Part shown: positions 19,358 to 44,255 of the stretch, in pieces
Position numbering within the stretch: the first letter of the stretch is position 1
Layout of the letters: every line of letters begins with the position of its first letter
Virus record (IMG/VR): IMGVR_UViG_3300031603_000003
Coordinates: 15,542-79,541 of that record
Length of the DNA stretch: 64,000 nt
Strand: one strand, 5' to 3'
Origin: a virus
Made by a program: the position numbers and the translations under genes
Notes under the pieces: model-generated
What the model saw: the letters and a program-made list of their open reading frames with translations, nothing else
Told to the model about the DNA's origin: nothing
Database searches by the model: none

Positions 19358-19786
19358 TTAGCGACCCATTAAGTTGTTTGGTGGAGGAACTGAAAGTTCT
19401 ACCGTGGTTGTAGTGTTGCCGGCCATGTGCCAAGATCCACTCTTGTACGCGAATCCAAATGTTTCATCGATCTCGGTTGTGCCGAATATAACTATGGCTA
19501 CATCAAAAGTGTTTGGTTTTGTGGTGCTCACTGTTACTTCAACCGGGTAATCTAAAAATAGATTATAGTCTAGGTAACGAGCTAATTGTTGTTCAAGCAT
19601 TCTTGCTTTTGCTGGTGTTTGTACGCTACCTATGTAGTCGCTTATACGGAATTGATTATCAAGGGCGGTGGACTGTCTTAAGAATACATATATTCTATTG
19701 TTCAGAGCTTCGTGTCCAGCGGCAGCGCGTATACGTGTGCCAGTCATCTCAATATCCCCGTCAACTGTCCAAAGCAATGTGCGCAT
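19358..19786 (-). CDS. gp25/gpW-like baseplate wedge (sheath initiator) protein (142 aa)
   Basis: Size, N-terminal DGDI motif and position directly upstream of baseplate J. Confidence 0.65.
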   Translation of the reverse strand: MRTLLWTVDGDIEMTGTRIRAAAGHEALNNRIYVFLRQSTALDNQFRISDYIGSVQTPAKARMLEQQLARYLDYNLFLDYPVEVTVSTTKPNTFDVAIVIFGTTEIDETFGFAYKSGSWHMAGNTTTTVELSVPPPNNLMGR

Positions 19787-20580
19787 TATTGATTCCTATT
19801 ATTCAACTTATCAAGAGCCACGGTTATAGTTCCGAATATGGTTGCAGCGATGATGCCCATGTTAATAAACTTAATCAAATCTGGCATCTTAGCTTTACTC
19901 GCGGGCCATGTAACAATTGTCTCGGGTAGCATATGGTTCATACTGTTCTCAAACACAATTGATTCTTTTCGAATGCTGTCTCCGGTATCGAATATATCAA
20001 CTCCGAGCATGCTAATGTCACCACCATCTACAATAAGCCCACTGGCATCAGTACCTAGGTACAAGCTGTCTTTAGCAAAACTAATTCCAACATCAGGAGT
20101 ACCTACCCTGTCTCTTATTGTTATGTCATTGGAGCTGGTGTCCATATCGGTTGTAGGACGATCCTTTATGAGCCTGGATGGACGTGCTTTGTGATCGAAA
20201 CTCGCCATGGCTTCGTTCACATAACCATTGTCAATATGGAAACGTATGAAATCTTTATCCACATATGACTCTTTCTCTTCGCCGTCAGTAGGCACGGCTA
20301 CTTCTTTACGTCCGCCATCGGTGAGGTACTCTTCTAAGCGTACACGACGATCTACTGGTGCATCAACATCTACTAAAATCTCCGGTACACCTAACACTAC
20401 ATATTCACGAAACTTATCTACCATGTACCCTGGAGCTTTGATTATATACAGGTCACCGTCGGATGTCTTGTCCGATTCCCCACGCATCCGTACGCATAAC
20501 CACAAGATATCTGTGTCTTTACTTACTTGTACGGTACTAGCATTTATAACCCTGGCATTCTTGTATATGTACTTGCTCAT
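19786..20580 (-). CDS. Putative central spike (gpV/gp5-position) protein with C-terminal hydrophobic helix (264 aa)
   Basis: Lies between hub and gp25-like genes. Start reassigned to MSKYIY at 20580 (ATGA overlap, AGGA upstream). Short beta-repeat stretch VGISFAKDSLYLGTDASGLIVDGGDISM. Confidence 0.55.
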   Translation of the reverse strand: MSKYIYKNARVINASTVQVSKDTDILWLCVRMRGESDKTSDGDLYIIKAPGYMVDKFREYVVLGVPEILVDVDAPVDRRVRLEEYLTDGGRKEVAVPTDGEEKESYVDKDFIRFHIDNGYVNEAMASFDHKARPSRLIKDRPTTDMDTSSNDITIRDRVGTPDVGISFAKDSLYLGTDASGLIVDGGDISMLGVDIFDTGDSIRKESIVFENSMNHMLPETIVTWPASKAKMPDLIKFINMGIIAATIFGTITVALDKLNNRNQ

Positions 20581-23500
20581 AGTCCTATTTCTCCGTTCAT
20601 AAGGCCCCATTGTGTAACAATACCATCCCAATAATTAGCATCAATGATATCACTTATAGCTATGGTGGATGCATTCCTATTGTATTGTATGCCTTCTAAC
20701 CCTGCACTGTATGCTTTACCATTGTACTGCAGTAACGACATGATGATCGGTGCATTACCTAGTTGCATGTTAGCGGCATTAATAAACTGTTTCATTTCCA
20801 TCGTCTTATATTTAATACCACCTGCTGCTATCGTAGTACCTACTATGACGAACATACTGGTAAATGCTGTTAGGAAAGACACTGCTCGTTTACCTAACTC
20901 TGATGCAATACCCTTTTCAACTAACCACTTGAAGCTAGTCTTAACGGCGTACTTAGCACCTGCTAATTCTCCACCAACTTTAAGCACAGTCCATGCGGTG
21001 CCTACTTTTCTAGTAAGACCGTTGAGTGTTGCGTTCAAGCCCATCAGCTCTGTATCAATGGCTGCTGCGGTGTTGCGCATAGAAGTAACTAAGTTGGGCT
21101 TGATAGTTGTTATGAATCCACCTGATGAACTCATGGAGTGGATAACTTCTTCCACTTCTATTACACCGCTCATTTGTGATACGGCATCCGAGATGTGAAT
21201 GTAATGCCAAGGGCGTATGGTAGCATCGCCTCTAAGTACCAGACTGCCCTGGTACATAGGTTTGATTTGATTCATCAATATCTGATCAGCTAGCATTTTA
21301 GCCTGAGGTTGCGCGTGTTTCCACCCGGCCGTGGCGTCTACGAAGTCCTCGCCTAATGTGTTAAGTCCTGTAAAATCATAGAAGATACTTGTATCACAGT
21401 TCTTCTGAAAGGATACGTACTCCCGGATATAATTAGCATCCAACTCGTTGGAGATAGATGATATTACCTTGTTCTCCTTATCCCATTCGTGTGGAGCTGA
21501 AACACCTGAGTCTTTTACGCTAGTTGGGTAATACACTGATACTTTATTTGACAGTAGATCCTCTGTGACTGTTATCTCATTAGATATGATGTGCGAGTCA
21601 CTACTGGCGAAGTGATGTTCCACGATTGGTTGGTAACTTTCGGATCCAGTTTGTCCATCATCATCCAGGAGTTGGATCAAATCTTCAAGATGTTGAGATT
21701 TAGTACCAGTTACTTGATAATTATTTGATTTAATATTAGCTAGGAACTGTGGCATATCTGCACGAAGGGCTATTGCCCATTCAGCTTTGACGGCGGTGAA
21801 TATAACTAGACGGCGTGCGCGGTTACCAGCAAGAAATCTATCTGTAAGTGTAACTGGGCCGCTAAGTGTTTCATCCAATGCAGAGTAGAACTGAGGTATT
21901 ATATTACCCTTGATATCTCCCATGTTCCAACATAACAACTGCGTAAATACTGACACTGGGTGTGTCTTAGAAGTGAATGATTCCTCTTCCATTATCTTGC
22001 TTGCGTACTTCAGGGCGAACTGTGCTAAGTGCGGTAACCCTGCATTACTTAATCGTTCAGCGGCTTGCTTTAATGGTGGACTATAATAATCATTGAAGAG
22101 GTTATCGAAGCGGCTCTTTACTGGGTTAAATTTAGAAGCCCACAGTGCGGCGTTACCTAACTTACGCGCGGCATCTTGCATATCCTGTTCTAAGTTATTT
22201 AAGCCAGTCAATGGGTCAAGCTCCCAATCTTCTTGGTTACTATTAGTTAATTCTTCTTCCGTTTGTAGTATGCGCTGTCTGATAGCGGTGGCGAACTCAT
22301 CACCCTTACCTGTAATGTGGTAGGGATCATCACTAGCTTTGTATTGTCCATCACGTGGGCCAAAGTATAGCGTAGCTCGTGGCGCTGTGCCTCCAAATAA
22401 GTAAGCACCTTCATTGTAAGGTAATGGTCTAACGATGTAGTCACCAAGATACAGTGCTTGTTCCCACAATGCATCCCATGTTGTTTGATTATTAATATGC
22501 CAGTAGAACGAGTCTTTATCGTCGAAACGATTAAAGAAGGGAACCATGTTTACAAACCCATAGTATTGTGGTCTCTTGTTGTTAACATAAATGTTATCGT
22601 ACAAGGAGTTGCCAAAGTTTAGCAGCATAGCATATTGGTTCGTACCATCTATGAGTGAATCCACGAAGTCTTTCGTACCTGCACCTACATCCCCATCGTA
22701 TAGTCCTAGTACATCTTGGGAGGCAGCAGAACCACCTACTACTTTCTTCTTCACTTTATCTAATAATCCCGAATCAACATCACTTACACCTGTACCAGAG
22801 AGCCCTGCTATACGGCCGAGCGTGTACAAGTGTTTAGTTAAATCATTTGAAGCTGCGATAAACTCTTCCGACTTTCCGTGGTGAATAGACCAACGTCCAA
22901 AGTGTTTTAAGCCAGATGTCTCACTTAAGGTAGTAAGTACGGCTTCACCTATATGTGACTCCATACTGCCGGAGGTTATACTACGGCTCATTTCTGATAA
23001 TAGTTCTACGCCGAAGCTTTGAATCTTTATCTCCAATATAGGACCTGGTATAACTTCAGTAACGGCACCGTACATTACAACCGGCAGGTTACGGTAGTCA
23101 GGCCCATAACCAAGGCGTACCATCACGGTGGTACCGGGTTGGATACGGAAACGTTCAAGGTTCTTAGGATCATCGGTGTCACGAAATAACTGAGAGATAC
23201 CTGGTGAAGTTAACTTACCAGTGACATTCGACAGGCGTATTATAGCTGTGGAGCTAGCAGAGTGCTTAGAGTCGATAACATCGATACTTTGTATACCATC
23301 GTACGTGTAGAAGTCATCGAATAAACCCCAGTCCGTGGAGTCTTCTTCGATCAAGAACATCTTAAACGCAGGGAATGCTTGAATAAAGTGATTATCCCAG
23401 TTATTATGTACCTGACTAGCGAGCTTCTTATCCAAACTTACATTCAGGAGTTCGGCGTCAATATCTGTGTACCCAAAACCTGCTAGTGCGGTATCTATGC

Positions 23501-27830: not shown

Positions 27831-27997
27831 TAGCTCATCTGTGCTAGTTTAATTATGTTAAGTAAATCAACATCGTTGATATATATGTCTGCGTTTACGC
27901 CATAACGCTCAAATAACATTAAACGAATACTGTCAATCTGTTCTTGTACGTCAAGCTCATATGGCACATCAGTTAACTTTATCATTATCGTAATCAT
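27830..27997 (-). CDS. Small hypothetical protein, 55 aa (missing from ORF track)
   Basis: MITIMIKLTDVPYELDVQEQIDSIRLMLFERYGVNADIYINDVDLLNIIKLAQMS*. ATGA overlap with the RNAP stop and TAATG overlap with the hub start; fills the gap exactly. Confidence 0.8.
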   Translation of the reverse strand: MITIMIKLTDVPYELDVQEQIDSIRLMLFERYGVNADIYINDVDLLNIIKLAQMS

Positions 27998-30900
27998 CTT
28001 ACTAAAGAGCCAGCTCTTCGGAGGTAATCTGATGAGCTAATAGCTGTGTGTCTGCGCTTCTTATTATTATATTCGTAATGTGGACGTTCAGGTACACGCA
28101 TACCTTTAACCAATTGTGGTGCATTGTCTGGTGAGTTCTTCAGTTTGTCCATCAACTTATCCTTCAATGTGGCACTCTGCTCTTTTAGGTGCACGCTCTT
28201 GCGATTACGGTACCCTTTGGTAACCTCCGACATATTTGGTGTGTCATACTGTTCGCCGCCTTTTCCGATTGTCTCCCCTACGATCTGGTTCCCAGTGTTG
28301 GGATCGAAGAATAAAGCCAGTCCGGCAACAGTTAATACTTTGCGTCCATGGTTACGTAGGAATGAGTTCTGATCTAAGGCAAAAACTGATTTAGTATATT
28401 GCTTAATCTTCTCTGTAAAGATACGTCTAGAGTTGAATTCCTCTGCCAGGGCACCACCAACGTGCCCTTCCAATTCTAATAGTGTCTGGAATACGCTAGC
28501 ACTACTACGTGCAAGACCCATACGCTTGAGCTCTGGCGCTATCATCTGGGACATCTCAGTACGTAGTACCTGATCTCTGGAGATTTGACTTTCAAGGGAA
28601 CTTACGGTGATACCTTTAGTTTTATTAGCTAGATCATCCGCCGCCCCTACTGCTTGCATTAAATCTCCTAGTTTAGCGGCATATGTATCGTCTCCTCTGC
28701 TGTTAGCATCTGTTTGTAATTGGACAAGTGTACTTCCAAGCTTATGTACAGCTATACTAGCAGTATGCCAGGACTCTAATAGTTTACCGGCTCGTAGTTG
28801 TGCTTTCTCCAGGGTAGCATCATTCATGGATGCTAGATCTTGCCTATTAGCGTGGTACGTTAATGTTAGTTTACGATCTTCACCCATACGTTTAGTAAAG
28901 TAATCTATGGATGCGTCTAGAGATGTTCTATCTTCTCCCCAGGTAACTGTATTAAGATGTCCCATCATCTTGATTAGAGATGTAACAGGGTTGCTACTAG
29001 TCTTTTCTATACCCGTACGTTGCCCTAGTTCAGCTACAAATAGGTTCATTACGTGCATGTTGCTATAACCACCCATCAAATCACTAGGAGAATGCAAGTA
29101 ATCGAGAGCTTCAAGTACTGAGTTAGATGTTATACCTTTGGCGTGTAATCCTACCTCTTCCATCATTCTATTAAACATACCGCTAGCAGCTTCACGCTGT
29201 GGGCCTTCATTTAATAAGCTACCAAGTTGACGCATGACGGAGTTCGGGCCGTACGCGGCGGCATATAGTTTCTTGTGGAACCCACCAATAACTTGCGTGA
29301 ATGACTTCTGTGTCATGTACGCCAGCTGCGTGTCAACCCTGCTATCCATCTCTAGTTGTTTCTTGAAGAAACTAGCAGACAGCGCTTCGGATGGATCGAC
29401 AAACAAGTGTGGATTAGTACCCATAGCGGCTTTATCGAGCTTGTAGAGCTGTCTGGTTCCTCCGGGAGAACTTTCAGTGGCGAAGTTTGCTTCATCGAAT
29501 ATATCGGCTAGGTATGGTGTACCGCCATCTCGTTCAATCTGTATCTTCTGCCAGTCGATCAACATATTGGTATGGTTTTCGTGACTCTGTTGGTACATTG
29601 TACGCTTGATGCCAATCTTACCTTCGCGGTCTCTCCATCCACCTATGTTGATGATAGCGGCAGTATCACCATCCTGATCAGCTCGTAGGAACTTCATCGC
29701 TAGTGGGTCTAGGAACACAGATGAGCGGGTGGAGAATCCTGCACCACCGTCATACACGGCACCGACTTGTTCTGGAAATATGTAAGTACCTCCGGCCAGC
29801 ACCATTCCTTGGATGTGGGATGGGTTACGATCACGTAATTGTTTACCACTGATCTCAGCAGTAAAGAATTGGTAAGCTTCCTGATAACTAAGATCTCCAG
29901 TCTTAACTGCTTCTTTTAGCTGTCTTGCGCCTGCTTTTCCGAATACAAAACTCTCGTTTACACCAAGTCCACGTGCACGTACTACGCCAGTTACTGGGTC
30001 TATCGGGCTACCGCCTCCAGTTATTCTGTTTAGTATAGTAGATAACTGAAGCTCGCTTTGTTTGCTAGCGACAAACTCTTGACCGAGACCCTTCTTTAAC
30101 CAACCGGGAAGCTTAATCTTGGAGTCTTCTAGTACGCCTAGTGATAACTGTTCTTGCATAGATATGAGTGTTGGGAGGATACCCATGCTATTCATGATCT
30201 TACCGTGTGACATGCTTACGGTACTAGCTGTAGATCTGAATTTAGATTGCTCGAATAAGTGACCTAGTATGCCTAAAGATGCACGATCTACTATCTCGGA
30301 GGTGAGTTCACGGCGTCTGTTGTACTCACGCATGAAGTCTTCTTCAGCTGTTTCTTTAATACCAACATGGAAGGCAGTCTGAAAGGCACTAATAGCTTCT
30401 GCACCTTCGAGGAACTTAGAACTAGCACCTGCCATAATAGCTAACCCATCTTTGTCGTGTGGCCTGAGTATACCTGTTAAGGCTGGGAAGATGACTTCAT
30501 CTATAATGTTGGGCCCGCGCTTGTCGGCGTTGCTTTCTATAAATTCACGGAATGCTTTGAATTTAGCCTTGTCCATACTACCTGCGGACTGTAACTCTCC
30601 ATGTATAGCGAGATCTTTGACTGCACCCATGTGTTTTATGGAGAGTGTCATGTTCTCAGTGCCGATACGCTTCTTGATAGCCTTACGGAACGCATCACGC
30701 TCTTCATCGTTGAACTTAGACATGTCGATCTTATCCAACATTTCATCTACACTGTCTAGTTTGAAACCTCTGTACGCTGGATCATTCTTCTCTAGTGCTC
30801 CGAACAGATTATCGCTGTCGAAGAACGCGGCACGTACTTGACTGATACGTGATTCAGCCATACCAGCAAGTTGTATATATTCTCCGGTTTGTGTATCCTG

Positions 30901-33900
30901 AAACTCTTGCCCAAACTGTGCCAGCATGCCGGCTGCTTTCATCTCCGGCGTAGCCCCGGCCCATTCCTGGGTAGTGAAATCAATATCAAATATAGATGCT
31001 TTACGTAGCTTTTCGAGTGACTCCTCTAGAGCCTTGGATCCAACTTTAGTAATCTTCTTCTTTAGTACCCTGTTACTCTCACCCTGCATGTACGCGGAGA
31101 TGAGTTGTACGGTCTTGGCTGCGTCGCGGACTGGTTGTTTACCTTCCCTGTTGACATAATTAAAGCCTAACTTAGGAGCATAGAACCCTGCCAAGTACCC
31201 GAAGTCTTCCATTGATCTTATATCATTGTGGCGGTTGCCGATACTGTCCATTACGATGGTGTTGAACATAGCCAGAGCTTTAGGTTTAAGACTAGGTAAG
31301 CCGTTGGCTTGTTCTGGGCGCATGTACATCATCCAGAAATCAGTGGCATCACTTGTTACGGACATCGACGTTAGAATACGTAGTGCTTGTGAGGTCATGC
31401 TCAGATGACCGTACTGTACGGGAACTATATCAAATAGTGCAGCTGATGTATCATCACCTACCTGGCTTTTCCAACGCTTGAAGTGTCTAGCTTTTAGCTT
31501 ATCGCCGCTGTTAGTAGCTTGCTCTAGTAATGTACCTAATGCTTGTTTCTGTTTAGTAAGACCAGCCGCCCATTGCGATACTACCTTGGCATCATTATTC
31601 CACAGCTTTTTGGCGGACTTGTTAAACTTATCCTTTACGTAACCCCAGGTTACACCGGCTTCCTCGAGCATGTTCTCAAGGACATGTAGGTCCACCCGCT
31701 CAAGTACAGTTGTCTCAATCTTAGCTGGGATCTCTGGTACATATATTATATGATCAACCAGGTTACCGGCAGCATTAGTGGTTTTAATCTTGCGTTTTAC
31801 ATACTTTACCTGTGATGCTACATCAGGTCCTAGTAAGGTGGAGAATGCTTTCTCAAGTGTACGTTTAGTGTGGTCTGGTTCAGAACCGTCAAGTACTAAC
31901 TTGAGTTGTATACGATTAATCTGGTGTATGATATTGGAAGCTATCTCATTACGATTACCACCAAGCTTAATGCCAGATGCAGCTTGGGTGTACAGTGGAT
32001 CTATATTTAGTCCACGACCAAAGCCCATGAGTGCGTTAATAGAAAACTTAGCTGTCTTATCACCGTAGAATGCCTTGGTACCTACACCTCCGGGGACGTA
32101 CTGCGCTAGGTTAACCGTCAGGTACCCAGTATCTGCATCATAATGAAGGGACTGTGGTATACCTGGAATTTGACCATGATACCTAGTGTCCGCGGCTATG
32201 CTTCCTATAACAGCACCATCAGCCTTAGCGCCGAGACTGGAGCGCGTCATTCCGCCGAATACTCTATCCTTATTGCGTACTGCTATGTCACCTCCTGGAG
32301 CCTTACCAGTTTTGATCCAGTTATTAACTAAATCCCAACCCTCTTGTTGACTATTTAGTCCAAGAGTAAAACTTCCATCAAGATGTAAGTGTAATCGTTC
32401 TTGTAGTAAGCCATCAGCTATGACCCTGTTAATGGCATTACCTATTGCTTTGTGCTTACCGATGCCTGACAGTACTTTAACTAACTCTGCTTCAGGTAAA
32501 GCACCTGCAGAGACTGCTAGGCCGGCAGGGGATGCGGAAGATAAGTTAAGTTTAAACTGAGCCTTAACTTGCTTGATACCTTTGTACGAACTAAGGTTTT
32601 GACGTAATTCGTCCGTCACTACGAGCCCTGATTCAAATACAGGTGCGAAGCTCTCAGGCATGAGCGTCATGACTACCATTTGGTGTGTGTGAGCGAGCTT
32701 GTTATCACTATTAATGTTATCAAGTACTCCGTACAGTGAAGAGGCTACACCTTTAGCCATTAAATTGTAGTTAAGCTTTTCACTAGTACCGAGGCGGTCA
32801 CTAATGAACTTATTAAACTTATCAGTATCATCAAATGATCCACTATACTGCGCAGATACATATTGTCTGATAGTAGCACTAGCCTCTGTCTCTAGTACAC
32901 CACCATGTCCATAGATACCAGTCATTGGTCCATTGGGGTTCAAGACACGGGCGGAGAGTACCTGGTACTTTTCACGAGAGAAGTTGTTCAGCAGACCGAA
33001 GGGCATTACACCCTCCAGTGAAAGTAATGTACCGCGAAGGTCGGAGGCTGAATGTCTAGGTTGGGACATCAACGATAGACCTAGGCTATGTGCCGGCGCG
33101 CCGTTGACTCCCCACTTGTCATAGATACCGAAAAGTTCTTGATTCTGTGCAGCAATATCTAGACTACGATGCCACTCGGCGCTTTGTCCACCCTTCTGCA
33201 GGTAGTTGGCTGCTACTTCAGTGTACTCCCGTATTCTACGTTTCTCCCTGGAGCCCATATCATTGTACAGTCTTTTAATACCGAAGTAATTCAGTACAGA
33301 TACCATGGAGTCAAATTGTGCTAAGTGACCAGTAGCCGTACCATCAAATTTGAGATGTAAGTCGTTGGCTTGAATAAGTCCTAGTATACGATTAGCATCC
33401 TTTATACGTCCCTGGTCAAACCCGCGCAATACACCTGCTTTATTCTGGTGTGTTGATGGGTTAGCTATATTCTGCGCGTACTGCAGTATATCTGAGAACT
33501 CATCCGTGGACACATTGTAGATATCTTTGAAGATGTCAGTCTGTGACTCAGCTTTATTCTGTCCCATCTTTAGTACATGATAGGCACTCTGTATATTAAA
33601 ATGAGAAAAGGTTTCACTTCGTGGATCAGTATTAAATAACTTACTAAGTATATTCTTGAACTTGGTCTTAAGCTTTCTAGTTAACCCTAACTCCGAGTTC
33701 AAGGCTCTTTCCATCAACGGGATATCAGCTTGTGTATGTGCTTGTCCTATGAAGATTACAGGGAATAGGTCATCCCCTCTATCAGCAGACATGGCGTTTA
33801 TACCGGTAGACATGTTATCCAACATCTGTATTAACATCTTCGCCGGTGTACTGGTGGTCTCTTCAAGTGCTTTAATTATCTTATTAGCTTCGCCGCGGTC

Positions 33901-36252
33901 GCCTACTTGTTGTAACACCCAGTCCTTGACACGTTGGGTTAACACTTCATCCATACCAAAAGCGTTAGGTTTAGCTAATAGGGCCGTCTTGCCCTTTGGC
34001 ATGAACGTGACTCTGTCCTCAAAGAGGTTGATAGTTGTTTGCCCACCCTGCCATATCTCAGAACTAGGATGTCGAGCTACCTGCTGCAGTCCAGCGGACT
34101 GAGAGGCCATGGAGTGAGAGAACTCCATATCAAATGCAATTCCTATTCCACCTGTATCTAGTAATTCTAAACCACGTTTACCTTCTAACACTTTTACATA
34201 GTCGTTGTATGAGGCTGCGTTTCTACGAAAGTCCATCTCTTGCGACTGTACGGTCAAAGCTGTACGGAAATCAGCTCCAGTAAGTTCAGCCGGTGACAGC
34301 TTAGTTGAGTCCTTACGTGCTAATCTGTTCCATAGTCCCTCCGTACGGTCAGGGTTAGTAAACGTTTCAATGAAATCATTTAATGCTTTTTCCGCTGTAC
34401 GCTCGATAGAATCCATACGGCCGGCTGTATAATCCACGAGACCATCTAGATCTGGATTGAACCCGCTAGCTCTATTCAATACTGTGCGCTGGTACAGTGT
34501 TGAAACCTGTGCTTGTCCGCCAAGAGTAGGAGTCACGACGCCACGTACGTTTATAGGTACTAGTACACTAGCGTTTAACCCACCACTAATGTAGCTTAGT
34601 TTTAAGTGTTGTTGTGTTATTCCTGCGTTATCAAACGTATAACCTTCTACTTTGAATTGCAGTTTCTCTAGCAAATCAGTTAATACTTTTAGCTTCTTCT
34701 GATCTGCGCCGGCACCAAGTACGGCTCTATTCTTGGCGTCAGCCTTAGCTCTTAGTACAACCTGCTTTATATTATCTAGTTGTTTACCAAGACGTTCAGC
34801 TACGACACCTGGATTATGAAACTTATCATATACAGCACCTTGCCCTAAGACCCTGTACATATCTTTGTGCAGTCTCGTGCGCAAACGTTCTAGATGATTG
34901 GGGTTTCCATTAGCTAAGTCTAACCAGTTACGTATATCTCCAGATGATCCTAGAGTGAACGCCTGCGGTTTACCGAACTTTACCTGTGGATTCACTACCT
35001 TGGTGAAGGTATCGACTAGCCTTTCTTTGTTAGCTTGGTTAAGTTTCTGCGCTGTCTTCTTGAGAACCTTCACAACCTGTGAAGACGGAGCCTGCGATGC
35101 TTGCATCTCGGAGAATCTAGTCTCCAGTGCGACCGCGTTTTGCCGGATATCATCCATCGTAACGAACCCAGCTTCTAATGTAGCGATAGGTTGTCGACCA
35201 TACACTTCGGAGTACGCGTTAGCGAAAGCGATTAGCTTACTATACTGTGCCATTTCTCCGGGAGTTTCGGCAGCCTTGTATAGATCTACAGCTAGTAGTT
35301 CAGCTACGCCACGTACGGATGATTGTGTAGTTTTGTTAGTGGACATGCCATCTACGAGTATCTTCCGTGTTTGCATGTACTGTTCTTTACGAAATGCACT
35401 AAGCTTATCGGCTGCCTCAGACTCTACGGTCTCAATTACCTGTCCAGGTAATTTACCAGCATCGATATGTTTCTTAAGTTCCATGACCATGATGGCATTT
35501 TGTAATGCCTCATCACTGGCGGTTCTGAAATTGTATACTACGTTACCGTAGCTCTTATCCTTTAGTACTAAAGCTAAGCCTGCCTTTAACCTAGCGTTAT
35601 ATCTCTTATTTTGTGCAGTATTTGGGGTAAACAACTCATCTTGTATAGCCAAGGTGGTATGTTCGTCCATGACGTGCTCGCCGCCTAGAACTTGTGTTGC
35701 TAGATTATTGGGTAAATCACCAATAATACCCTGTAATTTCATCAACTTAGCAGAGCTTTTAAACAGTATTTCATTAGCATCATTATTAACTAACGGATGC
35801 GCGCTGTTCACTCCGTAAACATTAGCCCAATAGCTGGAGATTGGATTAGCTAGTGTGTGTGCATCGCGTTTACTGATCTGTTCTACGAACTCACCAGCTG
35901 CGTTGCGTTTCTTACCGAACTTTCGTATATTCTTTTCTTGTTCTCGTGCTCGTTTATACCCAGCAATCATCATTGCCGTGTTGGATCCATCTGCCTTAAC
36001 ATACGCGGCGTTAGTCTGGATACCAGCGTTTGCGAAGATTTGATCGGCGGGACGATCTCCTGCTTTTAATACTTCCGGTACATCTATGATACGACTTAAT
36101 ATATCGTGTACGGCTGACTTAAATGATCCAGGTTCCTGGGCCGCCCACGCTTGGTGAATAGCTCTAGAGCCTTTGACTATACCAAGAATAGCTGGGAGCG
36201 CTAACGCCGCCGACAGTAGTACATCTTTAGTCTCTTTTTGCTTATTAGCCAC
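27994..36252 (-). CDS. Single-chain two-barrel (DPBB) DNA-dependent RNA polymerase, probably virion-packaged, with embedded DEDDh exonuclease (2752 aa)
   Basis: Beta'-like LRDRNPSH and VFLDPLAMKFLRADQDGDTAAI; beta-like LLSLEGVMPFGLLNNFSR, MVVMTLMPESFAPVFESGLVV and VGTKAFYGDKTAKF; exonuclease FDMEF / ADIPL / HLAQFD. GTG start preceded by AGGAG. Confidence 0.85.
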   Translation of the reverse strand: MANKQKETKDVLLSAALALPAILGIVKGSRAIHQAWAAQEPGSFKSAVHDILSRIIDVPEVLKAGDRPADQIFANAGIQTNAAYVKADGSNTAMMIAGYKRAREQEKNIRKFGKKRNAAGEFVEQISKRDAHTLANPISSYWANVYGVNSAHPLVNNDANEILFKSSAKLMKLQGIIGDLPNNLATQVLGGEHVMDEHTTLAIQDELFTPNTAQNKRYNARLKAGLALVLKDKSYGNVVYNFRTASDEALQNAIMVMELKKHIDAGKLPGQVIETVESEAADKLSAFRKEQYMQTRKILVDGMSTNKTTQSSVRGVAELLAVDLYKAAETPGEMAQYSKLIAFANAYSEVYGRQPIATLEAGFVTMDDIRQNAVALETRFSEMQASQAPSSQVVKVLKKTAQKLNQANKERLVDTFTKVVNPQVKFGKPQAFTLGSSGDIRNWLDLANGNPNHLERLRTRLHKDMYRVLGQGAVYDKFHNPGVVAERLGKQLDNIKQVVLRAKADAKNRAVLGAGADQKKLKVLTDLLEKLQFKVEGYTFDNAGITQQHLKLSYISGGLNASVLVPINVRGVVTPTLGGQAQVSTLYQRTVLNRASGFNPDLDGLVDYTAGRMDSIERTAEKALNDFIETFTNPDRTEGLWNRLARKDSTKLSPAELTGADFRTALTVQSQEMDFRRNAASYNDYVKVLEGKRGLELLDTGGIGIAFDMEFSHSMASQSAGLQQVARHPSSEIWQGGQTTINLFEDRVTFMPKGKTALLAKPNAFGMDEVLTQRVKDWVLQQVGDRGEANKIIKALEETTSTPAKMLIQMLDNMSTGINAMSADRGDDLFPVIFIGQAHTQADIPLMERALNSELGLTRKLKTKFKNILSKLFNTDPRSETFSHFNIQSAYHVLKMGQNKAESQTDIFKDIYNVSTDEFSDILQYAQNIANPSTHQNKAGVLRGFDQGRIKDANRILGLIQANDLHLKFDGTATGHLAQFDSMVSVLNYFGIKRLYNDMGSREKRRIREYTEVAANYLQKGGQSAEWHRSLDIAAQNQELFGIYDKWGVNGAPAHSLGLSLMSQPRHSASDLRGTLLSLEGVMPFGLLNNFSREKYQVLSARVLNPNGPMTGIYGHGGVLETEASATIRQYVSAQYSGSFDDTDKFNKFISDRLGTSEKLNYNLMAKGVASSLYGVLDNINSDNKLAHTHQMVVMTLMPESFAPVFESGLVVTDELRQNLSSYKGIKQVKAQFKLNLSSASPAGLAVSAGALPEAELVKVLSGIGKHKAIGNAINRVIADGLLQERLHLHLDGSFTLGLNSQQEGWDLVNNWIKTGKAPGGDIAVRNKDRVFGGMTRSSLGAKADGAVIGSIAADTRYHGQIPGIPQSLHYDADTGYLTVNLAQYVPGGVGTKAFYGDKTAKFSINALMGFGRGLNIDPLYTQAASGIKLGGNRNEIASNIIHQINRIQLKLVLDGSEPDHTKRTLEKAFSTLLGPDVASQVKYVKRKIKTTNAAGNLVDHIIYVPEIPAKIETTVLERVDLHVLENMLEEAGVTWGYVKDKFNKSAKKLWNNDAKVVSQWAAGLTKQKQALGTLLEQATNSGDKLKARHFKRWKSQVGDDTSAALFDIVPVQYGHLSMTSQALRILTSMSVTSDATDFWMMYMRPEQANGLPSLKPKALAMFNTIVMDSIGNRHNDIRSMEDFGYLAGFYAPKLGFNYVNREGKQPVRDAAKTVQLISAYMQGESNRVLKKKITKVGSKALEESLEKLRKASIFDIDFTTQEWAGATPEMKAAGMLAQFGQEFQDTQTGEYIQLAGMAESRISQVRAAFFDSDNLFGALEKNDPAYRGFKLDSVDEMLDKIDMSKFNDEERDAFRKAIKKRIGTENMTLSIKHMGAVKDLAIHGELQSAGSMDKAKFKAFREFIESNADKRGPNIIDEVIFPALTGILRPHDKDGLAIMAGASSKFLEGAEAISAFQTAFHVGIKETAEEDFMREYNRRRELTSEIVDRASLGILGHLFEQSKFRSTASTVSMSHGKIMNSMGILPTLISMQEQLSLGVLEDSKIKLPGWLKKGLGQEFVASKQSELQLSTILNRITGGGSPIDPVTGVVRARGLGVNESFVFGKAGARQLKEAVKTGDLSYQEAYQFFTAEISGKQLRDRNPSHIQGMVLAGGTYIFPEQVGAVYDGGAGFSTRSSVFLDPLAMKFLRADQDGDTAAIINIGGWRDREGKIGIKRTMYQQSHENHTNMLIDWQKIQIERDGGTPYLADIFDEANFATESSPGGTRQLYKLDKAAMGTNPHLFVDPSEALSASFFKKQLEMDSRVDTQLAYMTQKSFTQVIGGFHKKLYAAAYGPNSVMRQLGSLLNEGPQREAASGMFNRMMEEVGLHAKGITSNSVLEALDYLHSPSDLMGGYSNMHVMNLFVAELGQRTGIEKTSSNPVTSLIKMMGHLNTVTWGEDRTSLDASIDYFTKRMGEDRKLTLTYHANRQDLASMNDATLEKAQLRAGKLLESWHTASIAVHKLGSTLVQLQTDANSRGDDTYAAKLGDLMQAVGAADDLANKTKGITVSSLESQISRDQVLRTEMSQMIAPELKRMGLARSSASVFQTLLELEGHVGGALAEEFNSRRIFTEKIKQYTKSVFALDQNSFLRNHGRKVLTVAGLALFFDPNTGNQIVGETIGKGGEQYDTPNMSEVTKGYRNRKSVHLKEQSATLKDKLMDKLKNSPDNAPQLVKGMRVPERPHYEYNNKKRRHTAISSSDYLRRAGSLVR

Positions 36253-39200
36253 GTGTTCTCCTTGATATCTCGCGAGCAGAGTCTCTCTGGATTTCTACTT
36301 CTAGCTTGATACCTTCAGCCCCTGCTGATGGTGTGTCCGTAACTTCGACGGTAAATGTCATGCCAGACATAGTTAATTGCTGAGTGATATATCCTTGTAT
36401 CTCTGGTATATCTATATCTACTGAGCTTTGCCCTGAAGAAGGTGCATGTATATCTAATGCCCTGGACTTTAACAGACTTTGTTCAGCGGCTTTAACCTGG
36501 TCACGCCAACCTAACCCAAAGTCATGAGAATCAAGGCCGGCTGATTCCACCGTCTTCATTTCAAAGAAGTCCATGTTAGCGGACGGTTGCATTATTGGAT
36601 CAGTAGCTAATGGGCGTTGATGTGTTTCGAAGTATTGAGTAGCATCGAAGGCACTGTCTCTGCTCTCGTTCCAGGTCTTGGATAGTACGCGCGCCATGCT
36701 GGCATCAACCTTGCGTAAGATCTGTTGTCGTCTTTCCGGATCACGTTCGTTCATGAACGCTGTAAAGAATGGTCTATCCCAGTACGGGATGGCGGAGAAG
36801 GTAACTCCTAGATCTAATTGTGCACGATATGATGTGTCACCGGCGGTATCCTGACCACCCCACGGTGAGTGGTGCCCGTAGTTAGGTGTGCCCTGCATAT
36901 TGTACGCTTGATACGCGTAGCGGTTAGTTTGATTCATCTCTTCCGGGTTCTGGGCGAACGCACCAAAGCCAACAGCAGTCTGGCTCATTTGTCTCAAGTA
37001 CCTACTATCTTTCGTGAGGTCATACATCCGTGAAGCTTTGTCGTACTTAACGACATCGAAGTATTCAGAGTATTCACTGAGTTCTTCGAAGTGGTCAGGT
37101 TTGTATTCTGTACCGGTGATAGTTCTAGCGAGTCCGTGCGCTGTACCGTATGCAGCACCTACGGCTGCTCCAACAGTGGCACCGAATGGTCCACCGACTA
37201 GTGCTCCACCAGCTCCCCAACTCAGAGCTCCCTGTACGGGCCCGGTAGCTGATAGCGCTCCGCGTGTCCATGGCTTGATGAATGATTCAACTGGGTTTCC
37301 CCATCCTTGAAAGCCTTTACCTAATACCACTTCGTTATCGTACATTTCCTCTGGTGAATACACACCGAAAAACTTCGTATGTAACGGAGTACGATAACTC
37401 ATGAGCTTTTCCCAAACAGCACCAACGGCCCGTTCGGTTAATGAATATTCAGCTGCAGCTCTGATGTTCTCATTCAAGTTGTACGAGGTGTATTCAGCAC
37501 TGGGTGCAATCCAATCTGTACCTTGGAATCGTTTGTCATACATTTCATACTTGTTAACTACACCTTTAGCATGTCTCTTTAACATGTCTAATCTATTGAC
37601 CTGGCTATCAGTGAGCATACCGCGTTCTGCTTGTTCTTCGACGATTTGTCCTATTTCACGAAACTCTTTACTGAATGGGGATGTATTAAGTAATACTTCG
37701 AAGCGATCAGTGTAACTATAACCACCGGCAGCTTGACCGTATCCTTCTTCTAGATAACCGGCCGCCATACCGCGCGCTTGGTTAAGCGTGTTGATAGAGT
37801 CGTCCCACATGTCCGCGTTGTATCGGGTGAAAAACGACTTAACCTGTGAAGGATCATCTCGATTGACGTAGATTATCTTACCTGACTGTGCACCCATGAT
37901 GTGCATATAAGCATTCAACTGCACAACATTTGCTCGTTTTGGTGCACGGAGTTTACTAAAACCTGCGGCGCTGATAGATTTGATTTCACCAGGTGAGCCG
38001 ACTTTGTCCACTGTAGGAAAAACTAAATCAACATAGGATGATAATCTGTTCTCTGGGTCAGTGATTAATGCTTCTGTCTTGATTGCGCGGTTCTCTGCTT
38101 TCAATGCGGTCTGCACCATACGATGAATAGCAGTACCACCCTCCATAATCTCAATGGCATCCTCATCGAATTGGTTTAATCCTAAGAACCCCATAGCCTG
38201 ATCAAATGCGCTGGAACCTAATCTCGAGATACCGGACGGGAAATCAATGGTTGTTTCGTGTGTAGCTTCGTAGCCAGATCCTGGAAGAATATATTCCCCT
38301 AAAGGACGTTTGGTATTGTGTGTACAAACACAGCCCACACAGAAACTATCATCGGTATCTACTTCGAATCCGTATACGAGACCATCGTAACGTTCTCTCT
38401 TGATCCATTCGATACCTAGACTCATATATTGTTTGTTACCGATTACGCGCAATATAGTGGAAGGTAATTCATTACCTGTAATCTGTCCTCTATCGTATAC
38501 ACGTTCGCCTGTTAATATATGGTGTAACGTAACTGCTGATTTACCATATACTTGCACAGTGTTGCCTTCGAGAACTCCATGAATATGAAGTTGTGCTAAG
38601 TGACTCCAGATCTGATATGCTAAGTTTCGTGTAGGCATTTCAAACGTAAGTTCCATGCCTCTCATGTTAGTAGTCAGAAACTGTCTAGTGAACTGCAGTA
38701 ATGCAGGAGTACCCACAGCGTACAATTCATCTGGTATACCGTACGTCTGCATCTGTTCTAGTAACTCAGCTACAGCGCCGGAGCGGAAGCTATTATCTCT
38801 GTTTACTGATACTCCAAAGTATGTATCTACTAGGTGTACAATCTCTCCATGATCTATCGGGCAGTTGATTAACTTTATATGTTCATCTTCATACTTACCG
38901 TACGCCAGTATGATACCTAGTGTAAACGCATACCCACCTGTGACTACACCAGAACGTCTAGTAGACATTTCTGTGTGCACAGCTGGCGCTGTTGTACGTA
39001 AGTCACGCAGTGGGTATCTTACTCTATGTTTCTTGGTAAGATTCTCCGCTTTAACATAATGTCCATTGTCACTTACTAGGAATGGATGTTCACTAGTAAC
39101 ACGGATTAATGTATCAGTATGTTTTAACTTAATAACATATACGCGTTCCTTGACTGGTCTAGGTAGAATAGCGGATACCGGAACGTAACGACCACGTGTG

Positions 39201-42200
39201 GTACGTACTAGATCTCCCTCCTCTATTTCGTCCGCGCGCTTGAGGCCGCCGAGTACTTCAATTTCAGTGTCATCGGTAACACAATAAGGGTCACCAGTAC
39301 GGAATTCCTCAGGTAACCATGTTGGCATCTGATTAGGTATAGGGTTAGCCTGGTTGAAAGATGTACGTGGTCTAGGATAGAGTCTACGAATACCTTCATT
39401 AAGAAATAGTAAATCTCCAAGGTTAGCGTCCCATAATTTACGGGCCGTGGAGTCTATGGCGCTAGAGCTGGTTAAATATGTTTCATCTACAAATGGCTCG
39501 TCACCGCCCCAGAATGCTTGAGAGCTTAGGAACCCAGTTAACCCTGGTGCCTCGATTAAACCACGGTACACTGATTCAGATATAATAGCACGTGGGCTAG
39601 TAGCTCTGGCAATATATTCATCAGCTACTACTCCCATACCTGGTATAATTCGCGGGGCATCAGTGTCGAATCCCCCAAGTACACCTTTGTACTGTGAGAA
39701 CCCTGCTAACGCTTTACCCTCATGTGCACCTTTGCCTTTACCTGTGACGCCGGCGCCAAGTTCGGAGCGGGCATCCTCTAGGTGCATTAATGAGTTTGTG
39801 CCCATTGGATGTAGGAAGTTATACAATCTACCTGCAGTGGCTCCTAATATAGGACCAACCAGTGGTACTTCACTGAACGGTACATCAGGTTCCATATACG
39901 GTCTATCGAAATAATGTTTACGTGTTAGGTACTGTGGATCAATCAGATCGCCAATTGAGAAATCAATTATACTTCTGTCTTTGAATATGAACTCTTCCCA
40001 TGGTGAACCGTACTGTACCGGTGATGATGATACTTGTGCTTTCATACGGGCATACCAGTTTGGAAGAACGGCCATGGTGCGTCCACCTTCTATGGGCGTA
40101 CTTCCCAAAGTCCAACCGGCACCCTTACGTACGGGAACTAATTCTTTACCTGAATAGATATCACGTAATTCATCGTATGACTTAGTCATATCCGTGACGA
40201 ATGGAGCTGCTAGCGGAATGATAGATAGAAATCCGAGAGGACCTTCAGCCATTGTGGGTTGCAACCACCGGTTAATTACAGCTCCTGCTAACGCACCGGG
40301 TGCGCCTCCAATGGCGAATCCTATAGCTGCGCCTGGTAAGGTGGATGTAGACTTAGGCATCAACCCTTCTAAGTACTTGGCACCCGCTGTTACACCTGTA
40401 ATGTCATAAACTTTTGCAGCTAACAATCTCAAGCGTACGGCTTGATCGGCGACGCCTACGGTAATACCCTCATCCAGGGCAGTACCTTCGAACACTGGTA
40501 ATGTATCAGTAACAGTGTCAGCAAAGTCGTACGTGAGTTCTATTCCAGCCATTAACGCAGCACGGCGACCCATCAAACCAAGCCAAGAGCTGTGACCTTT
40601 GTCGCCTCTTTGTGGTAATATATCTTTATATTTACCACGGTCCCACCCAAGTCCAACCCAGTCCAGGACTGTACCGAATGTTTCATAAGTGTATGTGGAT
40701 CCAAACTTAAACCAACCACCTATGGAGTTGTCCACTGCTACGAACTGTGTCTCGGATGTGAGTTTCTTAATCTCCGATAGCTGGGCTGCACGACCCACGT
40801 GCTGATCATTGAACTGTTTAAGTGGATGGATTTGTTTTAGATAGGCAGTCGCTTCGTCGCTGTGTTGTGCTTCTTGGACTATTTCGATTAGCTTGTTTAC
40901 TGTAGGACGGTACTCAGACTGTGCCTCGGTATTGGTCTTCATACCCATTAACGGTCCAAGGTCCTCTGCCTGCAGAAGTTTCTTGTACGTTTTGGAATGT
41001 TTAACCATTTGAACTAGGCTTAGTTCTTTATCACTAAAGCGTGAACCGGTTCTGGCTTTAACTGCAGCTATAGCTCTATCTACAGCTGTAGACCCATCAG
41101 GAGTAGAGAAAGAGAGCTCGAAGTTAGTACTTACATCTGCTATGTACCTCAACATCTTTTGATGTGGACTCTCGCCTCTACCAGACCCTTGAAGGAAACT
41201 TTCAGGACTATCTAATAAATGTTCTTTGATGTATGCACTATTGGATACACTAATACTAGCCTTGCTGACGGGGCTATCACCAGTCTGGGCCATTAAATAC
41301 TTTACTACCTTACGAGACTTTACTACATCATCTTGTATCTCAGCGAGGAAATCTTCCGTAGAGAGTTTAGTACGGTTACCGCGTATAGCGCTGCGTATGT
41401 CTACGTTTGGTATGTTATCTAATAGTAATGATCCATGTCCGGTAGTTAACAGTGTTGAATATATAGAATCACTACCAAGGAATACCTTGTCGTACGCTTC
41501 TTTCTCAATACCAGCGAACATAGTACCAGCACCTGCTAACTCAACCATTAGTTGCTTGCCCATGAGCGGTGATATCTTAGCCTTACTATCGAATTTTGCT
41601 ATGTTACTCTTTATCTTATCTAGCATGTAGTGGGGCTTAGTAGGATCATTTGGCATTAGTGCGGAAGATACCATCTCGAAGATAGAAGCGTTAGCACCTT
41701 GGCTAGCTCCGAGGTCGAACTTCTGATGCAACCATTGTCGGAAAGGACTTGTTTTGTCCATTCTGTCTGGATCTCTTGGTGGAAGGAACCCTGCAGATTG
41801 GTAAACTATCTTTCCACCCTTCTTTGACAGTGCAGATGCGAAAGGCCGTATGTTGTTAGCGAGCTCAACGGTATTCTGCATAGCTAGATCTGGACCAAAC
41901 AGTGTGTAAGAACGCTTACCTGGAGTTCGAATTAGTACGCCAGGTAGGTTACCTTTACCTCCAGCTTGTCCACTAAACTTAAATGCTTGGCGTGGGCTGT
42001 CCGCGTTCATCAAGTACGCACCAGACTTTAAGCCCTCGTCCGTTACGTTTGCACCAGTCATACCAGATATGGGTAATGTATTATGTATAGGTATGAACAT
42101 TGGTAGATCTTGACCTAGCAATCCGCGTATTGGGTATAATGTATCAAGAGCAGGACCTAGGCGTGTCGTCTTACCTAGACTACTTATAGCTTTATCTGCT

Positions 42201-43660: not shown

Positions 43661-44255
43661 GCTTTATAGCTTCTGCGAGTACATTGGTAGTTTCCGCGAG
43701 CTTCTCGGGTGTGATACCACGTTTAGCCATAGACTCTGCGTCCATGGTGACAGGTTTAGAAGTAAGCTCTTGTGTCTCGGTCAAGATAGATTGCTTCGTA
43801 GCTAGTTCAAGTACAGCCACGGTACGGAATAGATGTTCAGGTGTCATTTTAAGTAACTGAAGTAGATCTATACCGGGGTACACAGCGGCTGCCTTGACCG
43901 CTATGGCGTACGTGACGGCTTTCTCTGAATGTTCTGATGCCCACGTACGGGAAACCTCCACGAGAGCATCATATGCTTCCTCTGAGAGTCCAATATTAGA
44001 GGTTGCGGATTCAGCTATGGTCGAGTATGAACCGGCGAGAGTTAACGGAGCGTCGGGGCCATGTAACACTACGGTCTTAAAGATCGCTTCTGCCCAATCT
44101 GATGTTGGTAGAGATGTAGATAAATCCATAAACGCCAAGTACTCCATGGTGTTAAGGGATCTATAATAAATACGTTGTGATTCTATAGTCACCGCGTGTA
44201 CGGCACCGTATTCAAACTTCCACTTTAATAATTGTGTTTCGTCTACTTTAGCCAT
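43641..44255 (-). CDS. Tail assembly chaperone, long paralog (204 aa)
   Basis: N-terminus WKFEYG...IYYRSLNTMEY aligns with the upstream chaperone; position before the tape-measure-like gene. Confidence 0.75.
   Translation of the reverse strand: MAKVDETQLLKWKFEYGAVHAVTIESQRIYYRSLNTMEYLAFMDLSTSLPTSDWAEAIFKTVVLHGPDAPLTLAGSYSTIAESATSNIGLSEEAYDALVEVSRTWASEHSEKAVTYAIAVKAAAVYPGIDLLQLLKMTPEHLFRTVAVLELATKQSILTETQELTSKPVTMDAESMAKRGITPEKLAETTNVLAEAIKHGRNGR

Follow-up and report, generated by a model that had tools for sequence, protein, structure and literature searches.

The window analyzed here, 64,000 nucleotides that correspond to bases 15542-79541 of a 79.5-kb IMG/VR virus contig (IMGVR_UViG_3300031603_000003), contains three consecutive giant genes whose products of 2471, 2752 and 2417 amino acids are referred to below as proteins 1, 2 and 3 (P0001, P0002 and P0003). 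The region is the tail module of a contractile-tailed phage, since sheath, tube, gp25-like and Baseplate_J genes flank the giant trio, and the giants occupy the slot expected for the tape measure and the hub. The best explanation of the data is that the trio represents the conserved tail core of a lineage of jumbo myoviruses resembling Bacillus phage 0305phi8-36, and that an exonuclease and a putative RNA polymerase (RNAP), both carried by protein 2, would be delivered through the tail. Taken as a whole, we consider this reading to be reasonably probable.

An initial annotation, made from the letters of the window alone, had described the same region as an ejection apparatus composed of a nuclease-bearing tape measure, an RNAP-exonuclease and a muralytic hub. 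Much of what it observed was borne out, including the three open reading frames (ORFs), which are present on the minus strand at the sizes it gave, their place in the tape-measure and hub slot, the nuclease, the intein and the exonuclease, while a transglycosylase and the second barrel of the polymerase were not confirmed. Its interpretation fared similarly, in that most of the domain calls and the conserved arrangement are supported and the assignments of protein 1 as the tape measure and of protein 3 as a muralytic hub are not.

Arrangement of the three giant genes across related loci

Full-length relatives of P0003 were found (34% identity and 97% coverage to P0004), and a hub-protein profile built from them was used to collect related loci. 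The profile recovered 61 of these, 26 from IMG/VR (contigs up to 230 kb) and 35 from metagenomes. In the loci with long enough flanks the gene order was kept, with a P0001-like gene followed by a middle giant of 1500-2900 amino acids and a hub giant of 2200-5100 amino acids, and with a gene of ~420 amino acids further downstream of the hub at the position of the J-like wedge. The cultured relatives were Bacillus phages 0305phi8-36, WH1, Edson and KLEB27-3, Moorella phage MTATph1 and Acinetobacter phage ME3, and the three-gene order is also found in 0305phi8-36 (gp145-gp146-gp147), WH1 and ME3. The arrangement on which the initial annotation depended is strongly kept across the related loci. 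A megablast search of the region against 50,697 phage records gave no match.

Two of the related loci depart from the one-gene, one-giant pattern. In the closest relative (L002:9797-17237, plus strand) the hub consists of two adjacent ORFs of 1111 and 1367 amino acids, counted stop to stop, rather than one protein of 2417 amino acids, and this is either a split gene, a frameshift or a sequencing error. A transposase gene, CDS0028, seems to interrupt the middle giant of MTATph1 (L031:10513-17869). The part upstream of it keeps the ExoI-like VLDLETT, and none of the parts was found to contain a DxDxD.

Polymerase-like and exonuclease features of protein 2

An R-x-P motif followed by DxDxD is the signature of beta-prime-type catalytic barrels, the corresponding residues in Rpb1 being R446, P448 and D481/483/485 (PMC2919709). 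Both motifs are present in the last third of protein 2 (Table 1). All of the middle genes examined (36/36) encode a single DxDxD, mostly of the form [GA]DxDGD, at ~75-80% of the length of the protein. Across 37 aligned sequences D2192, D2194 and D2196 do not vary, and in an alignment of 27 sequences R2142 was conserved in 93%, P2144 in 96%, the three aspartates in 100% and K1402 in 89%. The R-x-P lies ~50 amino acids upstream of DxDGD in the long forms of the protein; in the short forms it lies further upstream, where the alignment is less sure. One short-form subfamily (L020, L023-L026 and L069-L086) has a longer insert with GxGGG between the R-x-P position and DxDGD. That the three aspartates are invariant and R-x-P is nearly so among proteins with 7-29% identity suggests selection on a catalytic site.

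A barrel profile made from the 37 sequences was compared with PDB and gave 59 matches at E <=5, all of them to RNAP beta-prime or to the phiKZ RNAP. The 59 matches align at the NADFDGD loop, and the best had an E value of 0.0017. With a broader profile the tape-measure RNAP of Thermus phage P23-45 ranked first in PDB, at a non-significant E value of 0.2. Using hhalign, RNP...DQDGD was placed in register with FRNP...DFDGD of P23-45 gp96 over 60 columns (E 1.3e-3, probability 18%), and a family hidden Markov model scored 15.8 bits on gp96 at amino acids 681-791, a match confined to the catalytic barrel. Among the cultured relatives, WH1 gp095 matched the barrel profile at 24.6 bits, with KADHDGD at amino acid 1996 and an additional match to the ExoII region of the exonuclease, and ME3 gp36 gave a weak match with GGDHDQD at amino acid 1217. 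The nearest named ESM Atlas clusters, identified as feature neighbors, carry PF05183 RdRP (score 0.86), which is a lead only; a PF05183 search in four genomes gave no match, but it is uninformative, as the controls were silent as well.

The five residues that define the DEDDh 3'-5' exonuclease of protein 2 (Table 1) are the sole invariant columns in 21 aligned sequences and make up the full DEDDh set (Exo I D-x-E, Exo II D and Exo III H-x4-D). A DEDDh profile had no significant match to PDB sequences; a fold search then decided the assignment, recovering the RNase H-like DnaQ fold. The exonuclease called in the initial annotation is thus confirmed by both invariant residues and fold. It is absent from the short middle genes (1500-1800 amino acids). 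At the N terminus of protein 2 is a hydrophobic helix with comparable helices in P0015, P0017 and P0019 and a glycine, G24, conserved in 93% of the 27 sequences, while the C-terminal module is the only part of the protein seen by tblastn in the distant relatives L006-L009. A full HMMER scan of 1.84 billion representative proteins yielded only 5 homologs of P0002. No match was obtained by tblastn of P0002 against the 50,697 phage records, a search that missed the WH1 and ME3 counterparts too, by an IMG/VR scan with P0002 alone, or by a word-indexed protein search with amino acids 1700-2500.

Several results weigh against an active polymerase delivered by the tail. P0002 alone had no Pfam, PHROG or PDB sequence match, and the alignment with gp96 is a short one. 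In PDB, phmmer gave no match for any of the three giants. The candidate beta-like barrel, in which a semi-conserved E-G is found at about amino acid 1207, gave no PDB match to beta subunits and had no profile or fold support; hhalign of this region against the N-terminal half of gp96 returned a probability of 0.3%. An AlphaFold2 (AF2) model of amino acids 1150-2349 based on 23 sequences had a mean predicted local distance difference test score (pLDDT) of 44, so that the fold was not obtained, and the best Foldseek E value for this low-confidence model, 0.5, is meaningless. The middle protein of 0305phi8-36, gp146 (L028:22624-30237), lacks a DxDxD, and no similarity could be detected between it and either P0002 or the family profile. 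Since gp146 is the only middle counterpart with virion mass spectrometry and does not have the polymerase motif, virion presence has been documented for a motif-less form; loss or replacement of the tail-slot polymerase may explain gp146 and the separate polymerase of that phage, gp99. The completeness of the contig is 42% by CheckV. Finally, a folded polymerase of ~1200 amino acids is too big for the lumen of the tail tube unless it is unfolded or unusually flat.

Some of these results are what would be expected if protein 2 were a structural tape-measure or tail-core protein in which DxDGD is a metal-binding or relic motif, leaving only the exonuclease and the nuclease active. The unconfirmed fold, the lack of evidence for a second barrel, the best PDB E value of only 0.0017 over a short stretch, and the state of 0305phi8-36, which is without the motif at the middle position and has a separate YonO-like RNAP, all favor such a purely structural protein. 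We nevertheless regard it as unlikely, because the aspartate triad is invariant and R-x-P nearly so despite the low identity of these proteins, every PDB match is to an RNAP active-site loop, and the register with gp96, a proven active enzyme, spans both motifs. A beta-prime-type barrel in protein 2 is therefore supported at the level of motif and profile, and, judged from these sequence comparisons, protein 2 is probably an active two-barrel RNAP. The polymerase proposed in the initial annotation is upheld in its beta-prime-like half (R-x-P, DxDGD and the profile matches), while neither the beta-like half nor the fold was confirmed.

A different protein with a similar motif was observed in two of the relatives. 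It has ~900-1050 amino acids, carries KYP...(30 amino acids)...NTDSDGD with beta-prime-like spacing, and is encoded in G001, a complete relative of 198 kb (L048:4409-7549, minus strand), and in G003 (L087:1303-3948, plus strand). The two proteins share 41% identity, and in the one from G001 several hydrophobic helices lie at the N-terminal end. Searches of Pfam, PHROG, phage records and PDB gave no match for this protein, and it was not found in the present, incomplete contig. By analogy with gp64 of P23-45, it might be a second, non-virion RNAP.

The flanking giant proteins and their setting in the tail module

P0001 aligned by blastp in four blocks with 0305phi8-36 gp145 and, over its full length and at 43.5% identity, with a 2486 amino acid ortholog in G001. 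The best-conserved part of the first giant across the lineage is the core at amino acids 1030-1459, which is kept in ME3, WH1, the Moorella phage and 0305phi8-36. This core contains a Gly-zipper hydrophobic helix (amino acids 1110-1129, AAIGFAIGGAPGALAGAVI), and its C-terminal end, NPxxNxMPxWLP..GDPY, is the target site of an intein. A profile of the GDPY core had no match in Pfam or PDB. The intein, 323 amino acids in length and already called in the initial annotation, matched Pfam Intein_splicing at an E value of 4.5e-5 with a score of 23.7, which is below the curated cut-off of 35.8. The GDPY site was occupied in four relatives (L032-L035) by inserts of ~320-340 amino acids (gap of 955-1015 nucleotides) and empty in four others (L012, L013, L015 and L036), where 3-5 amino acids are present (gap of 10-16 nucleotides). 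The presence or absence of an insertion at one conserved site fits a mobile intein in a functionally important site, and this polymorphism together with the HINT motifs confirms the assignment. The terminase large subunit of G001, the closest complete relative (L049:4930-7194, plus strand), also has an intein (Pfam Intein_splicing, E 6.3e-8), and therefore inteins recur in the lineage.

Downstream of the intein is the nuclease, in which the motifs GT..H..Q (upstream G-x-x-x-H), E, D, E-x-K and Q...Y were invariant in 13 sequences. A profile of the domain matched Cas4 structures in PDB (4ic1_A, E 1.6e-5; 4r5q_A, E 6e-4), and these matches, the invariant motifs and the PHROG match confirm the PD-(D/E)XK nuclease called earlier in protein 1. 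There is no cysteine within amino acids 1796-2010 and hence none of the four that form the Fe-S cluster of Cas4, which ruled out Cas4 proper; because the domain is without cysteine, the nuclease is considered RecB-like and not a true Cas4. The same domain, with a D-x-K variant, is present in the virion protein gp145 of 0305phi8-36. In WH1, the Moorella phage and ME3 only the flanking part is kept and the Cas4-like core is absent.

The assignment of protein 1 as the tape measure is unproven, and in 0305phi8-36 the middle gene received that role: gp146 was called a "hypothetical tape measure protein" because its length correlates with tail length, and gp143 and gp144 were read as chaperonins (PMC2147016). 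The ORFs of at least 700 amino acids that lie outside the trio in G001 were listed and partly scanned, and among these no other tape-measure candidate was seen, a separate conventional gene of this kind being something that would have counted against the initial annotation. They include a sheath-position ORF, a fibre protein, a RecD2-like helicase, a ribonucleotide reductase, a DNA polymerase A and the intein-bearing terminase, and the remainder were unscanned or without a family match. Since no tape-measure-like ORF was seen elsewhere in G001, the determination of tail length appears to lie within the trio.

Protein 3 matched phrog_20474 (E 9e-50) and, by tblastn, the gp147 hub of 0305phi8-36 (E 1e-9) and also the hub of ME3, which identifies it at the sequence level as a giant baseplate hub of the gp27/gp147 type; the hub profile of P0003 had no match in PDB. 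In 0305phi8-36, gp147 was described as a hyperplastic T4 gp27-type hub with a Pfam transglycosylase and with peptidase domains (PMC2147016). The N-terminal FIETG...GRYQM of P0003 resembles the E-S...GLMQ motif of lytic transglycosylases, and similar motifs occur in two of four orthologs. A transglycosylase in P0003 was not matched in Pfam, PHROG or PDB. Thus the E-T...G-x-Y-Q-M motif behind the "muralytic" label is present, but profile and structure give it no support.

Hydrophobic segments were scored by a 19-residue Kyte-Doolittle test. The five hydrophobic strings that had been quoted from the trio and the spike-position protein all exist, and four pass (1.75-1.95). The fifth, VLTVAGLALFF, has only 11 residues and is too short to span a membrane alone; it sits in the conserved C-terminal module of protein 2. 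P0003 has a hydrophobic helix at amino acids 2316-2334, and the spike-position protein, for which no family match was found, has one at its C-terminal end (amino acids 255-273, Kyte-Doolittle 1.95).

All genes in the window are on the minus strand, and the GC content is 42-48% across its whole length. The features are listed in Table 1. Fibre-like genes come after the Baseplate_J gene in transcription order, and several small ORFs lie between the tube paralogs and the giants. The two tube-like paralogs correspond in position to the tube genes gp140/gp141 of 0305phi8-36. PHROG 9206, which both of them match, bears the label "major head protein"; the label is probably wrong for these proteins, because they follow the sheath gene and because of the tube annotation in 0305phi8-36. 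The ORFs of 127 and 204 amino acids at the chaperone position had no family match. The second of these overlaps gene 1 by 20 nucleotides and gene 1 overlaps gene 2 by 8 nucleotides, while genes 2 and 3 are separated by a gap of 163 nucleotides and so do not overlap. The GTG start of gene 2 is backed by homologs with a common N terminus. A crAss-like podovirus, which had been a guess from the giant genes, was ruled out by the sheath and baseplate genes. A hub protein identical to P0003 has also been recorded on another and longer contig (103,954 bases), which could extend this phage genome.

Table 1. Features of the tail module, in transcription order, with positions in the window (aa, amino acids)
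Feature	Position	Strand	Basis or comment
Major capsid protein gene	53870-55225	-	First in transcription order here
Tail sheath, 955 aa	47941..50808	-	phrog_16991 "tail sheath", E 1.1e-13
Tail-tube-like paralog, 209 aa	47202-47831	-	phrog_9206; weak Phage_tube_2 match
Tail-tube-like paralog, 184 aa	46579-47133	-	phrog_9206
Small ORFs at chaperone position, 127 and 204 aa	43641..44707	-	Position only, by analogy with 0305phi8-36 gp143/gp144
Giant protein 1 (P0001), 2471 aa	36245..43660	-	Homolog of 0305phi8-36 gp145
Protein 1 conserved core, aa 1030-1459	39284..40573	-	29 invariant columns in 12 sequences
Protein 1 intein, aa 1460-1782, 323 aa	38315..39283	-	Cys1460, block B TSEHP, ...CTHN then T1783
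Protein 1 PD-(D/E)XK Cas4/RecB-like nuclease, aa 1796-2010	37631..38275	-	phrog_1706, E 1.8e-13
Giant protein 2 (P0002), 2752 aa	27994..36252	-	Synteny; position of 0305phi8-36 gp146
Protein 2 N-terminal hydrophobic helix, aa 11-29	36166..36222	-	Kyte-Doolittle 1.88
Protein 2 DEDDh 3'-5' exonuclease, aa 670-1010	33223..34245	-	D708, E710, D843, H976, D981
Protein 2 candidate beta-like barrel motifs	32008..32670	-	FESGLVV, GDKTAK, K1402 (89% of 27 sequences)
Protein 2 beta-prime-like catalytic barrel region, aa 2082-2326	29275..30009	-	R2142-x-P2144, D2192-Q-D-G-D2196; DQDGD at 29665-29679
Protein 2 C-terminal module, aa 2604-2752, with VLTVAGLALFF	27997..28443	-	Conserved in P0015-P0019
Giant protein 3 (P0003), 2417 aa	20577..27830	-	Baseplate hub homolog
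Spike-position protein, 281 aa	19786..20631	-	Position after hub, like gpV-like gp148 of 0305phi8-36
gp25-like wedge gene, 142 aa	19358-19786	-	phrog_2669 (weak)
Baseplate_J-like wedge gene, 376 aa	18226-19356	-	phrog_6, E 2.3e-34; Pfam Baseplate_J, E 9e-21

Proposed delivery through the tail and comparison with known phage polymerases

The closest known case is gp96 of Thermus phage P23-45 (also P74-26, G20c and TSP4; PDB 8H2M/8H2N), a virion two-barrel RNAP fused to the tape measure. Chaban et al. (2024) found that the N-terminal 1200 amino acids of the P23-45 tape measure are an active, unusually flat RNAP, and proposed that it is located at the tape-measure pore and transcribes pre-early genes during DNA entry (PMC10770324). 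The membrane-pore RNAP mechanism of the initial annotation is this published hypothesis applied to a new lineage. Like gp96, P0002 is a giant protein with hydrophobic segments at the tape-measure position and, as predicted from its motifs, has a single-chain RNAP core with R-x-P...DxDGD. P23-45 is a siphovirus, whereas the phage described here is a jumbo myovirus. The RNAP of gp96 occupies the N terminus, ahead of ~3800 amino acids of tape with a metallopeptidase, whereas the catalytic loop of P0002 is at amino acid 2192 of 2752; P0002 further differs in having the DEDDh exonuclease ahead of the catalytic loop and in the two additional giants that flank its gene. Sequence similarity between P0002 and gp96 is limited to ~60-110 residues. 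The survey tables of that study contain no Acinetobacter or 0305phi8 entries (PMC10770324).

Phage 0305phi8-36 belongs to the same lineage, with the order chaperonins, giant 1, giant 2, hub, gpV-like and gpJ-like. Protein 1 has its homolog in gp145, with the GDPY core and the nuclease shared, and protein 3 has its homolog in gp147; 0305phi8-36 differs in having no intein at the GDPY site and in its separate YonO-like RNAP, gp99. Mass spectrometry of 0305phi8-36 virions detected both gp145 and gp146, the latter of which matches protein 2 in position (PMC2147016). Iyer et al. (2021) credited this phage only with the YonO-like gp99 (PMC7824862). WH1 gp095, annotated as a "virion structural protein", and ME3 gp36, annotated as a "hypothetical protein", are very divergent forms of the middle giant of the same trio, and no literature on either as a polymerase was found. 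Neither was a description of a 0305phi8-36-like tail-slot RNAP family found in the literature, within a search of incomplete coverage. The crAss-like phi14:2 gp66, YonO and QDE-1 are likewise single-polypeptide two-barrel enzymes with DxDxD, to which P0002 can be likened on the strength of its motifs. Of these, gp66 is a virion protein within a larger polypeptide; all three lie outside tail modules and are without a fused DEDDh exonuclease.

A mechanism can be proposed in which protein 1 would be a gp145-type virion protein with the GDPY core, the glycine-zipper helix, the intein and the RecB/Cas4-like nuclease, and protein 2, at the tape-measure position, would carry the exonuclease followed by a two-barrel RNAP core in its C-terminal third, the two being placed between the N-terminal helix and the C-terminal module. 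Aided by the two upstream chaperone-position proteins, the proteins would be assembled into the tail core, and contraction of the sheath would expel them. Their hydrophobic segments would then insert into the membrane, and the polymerase would transcribe the genes that enter first, with no need of host RNAP, as proposed for P23-45. Trimming or proofreading of 3' ends is a possible role for the exonuclease, and the nuclease may attack host or competing DNA. It is by analogy that we infer the virion location in this phage, the position in the tail lumen, ejection, membrane insertion or a conduit, transcription-driven entry and the targets of the enzymes.

The virion RNAPs known from N4, crAss-like and phiKZ-like phages are delivered from the head (PMC10770324, PMC7824862), and the proteins described here might also be virion-borne and ejected but packaged in the capsid, the position of their genes in the tail module reflecting co-expression only. 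Three globular enzyme domains would be hard to fit into the lumen of the tube, and the AF2 model, at its pLDDT of 44, predicts mixed helix and strand with no long coiled coil. On the other hand, the genes come directly after the chaperone-position ORFs and ahead of the hub, and this placement is shared by the related loci examined. The C-terminal module is the most conserved part of protein 2, as expected for the end of a tape measure that docks on the hub, and no other tape-measure candidate was found among the partly scanned ORFs of at least 700 amino acids in G001. For these reasons packaging in the capsid seems improbable to us, and delivery through the tail is preferred.

The purpose of the delivered enzymes might also be a different one, namely host takeover or counter-defence, with the nucleases degrading host DNA, plasmids or defence nucleic acids and the polymerase making primers or decoy RNAs. 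The nuclease modules do vary in the lineage, as would fit such roles: WH1, the Moorella phage and ME3 are without the Cas4-like core, the hub homolog of BtI1 carries a staphylococcal nuclease instead (PMC2147016), and the short forms of the middle protein have no exonuclease. Only the polymerase core, however, has been retained by all polymerase-bearing members, which points to an essential function, and we give a role mainly in takeover or counter-defence very little weight compared with transcription of the entering genome.

It is more speculative, and on present data doubtful, that these jumbo contractile-tailed phages form a widespread and ancient lineage in which a single-chain RNAP coupled to an exonuclease is delivered via the tail, that a polymerase anchored at the pore starts transcription and helps to pull in a genome of ~190 kb, and that the injected nuclease clears host or rival DNA. 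Should the DEDDh domain prove to act as an editor of nascent transcripts, no RNA polymerase before this one would have had a dedicated exonuclease domain of the proofreading type.

The findings in P23-45 made a virion RNAP joined to the tape measure seem peculiar to one small group of Thermus siphoviruses. Our results suggest the same strategy in a second, unrelated and much larger lineage, the 0305phi8-36-like jumbo myoviruses of many environments. Here the architecture is different and there are further enzymes: the chain of the putative polymerase also contains a DnaQ-type exonuclease, and the neighboring giant has a RecB-like nuclease and an intein. The motif is carried by the cultured Bacillus cereus phage WH1, probably by Edson, and by Acinetobacter phage ME3, so that the prediction is open to laboratory tests. 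If true, it would call for the re-annotation of proteins now labeled "virion structural protein", "hypothetical protein" or "tape measure". It would also bear on how infection by phages with genomes of 200 kb can begin without reliance on host RNA polymerase, and on how large folded enzymes pass through a tail tube.

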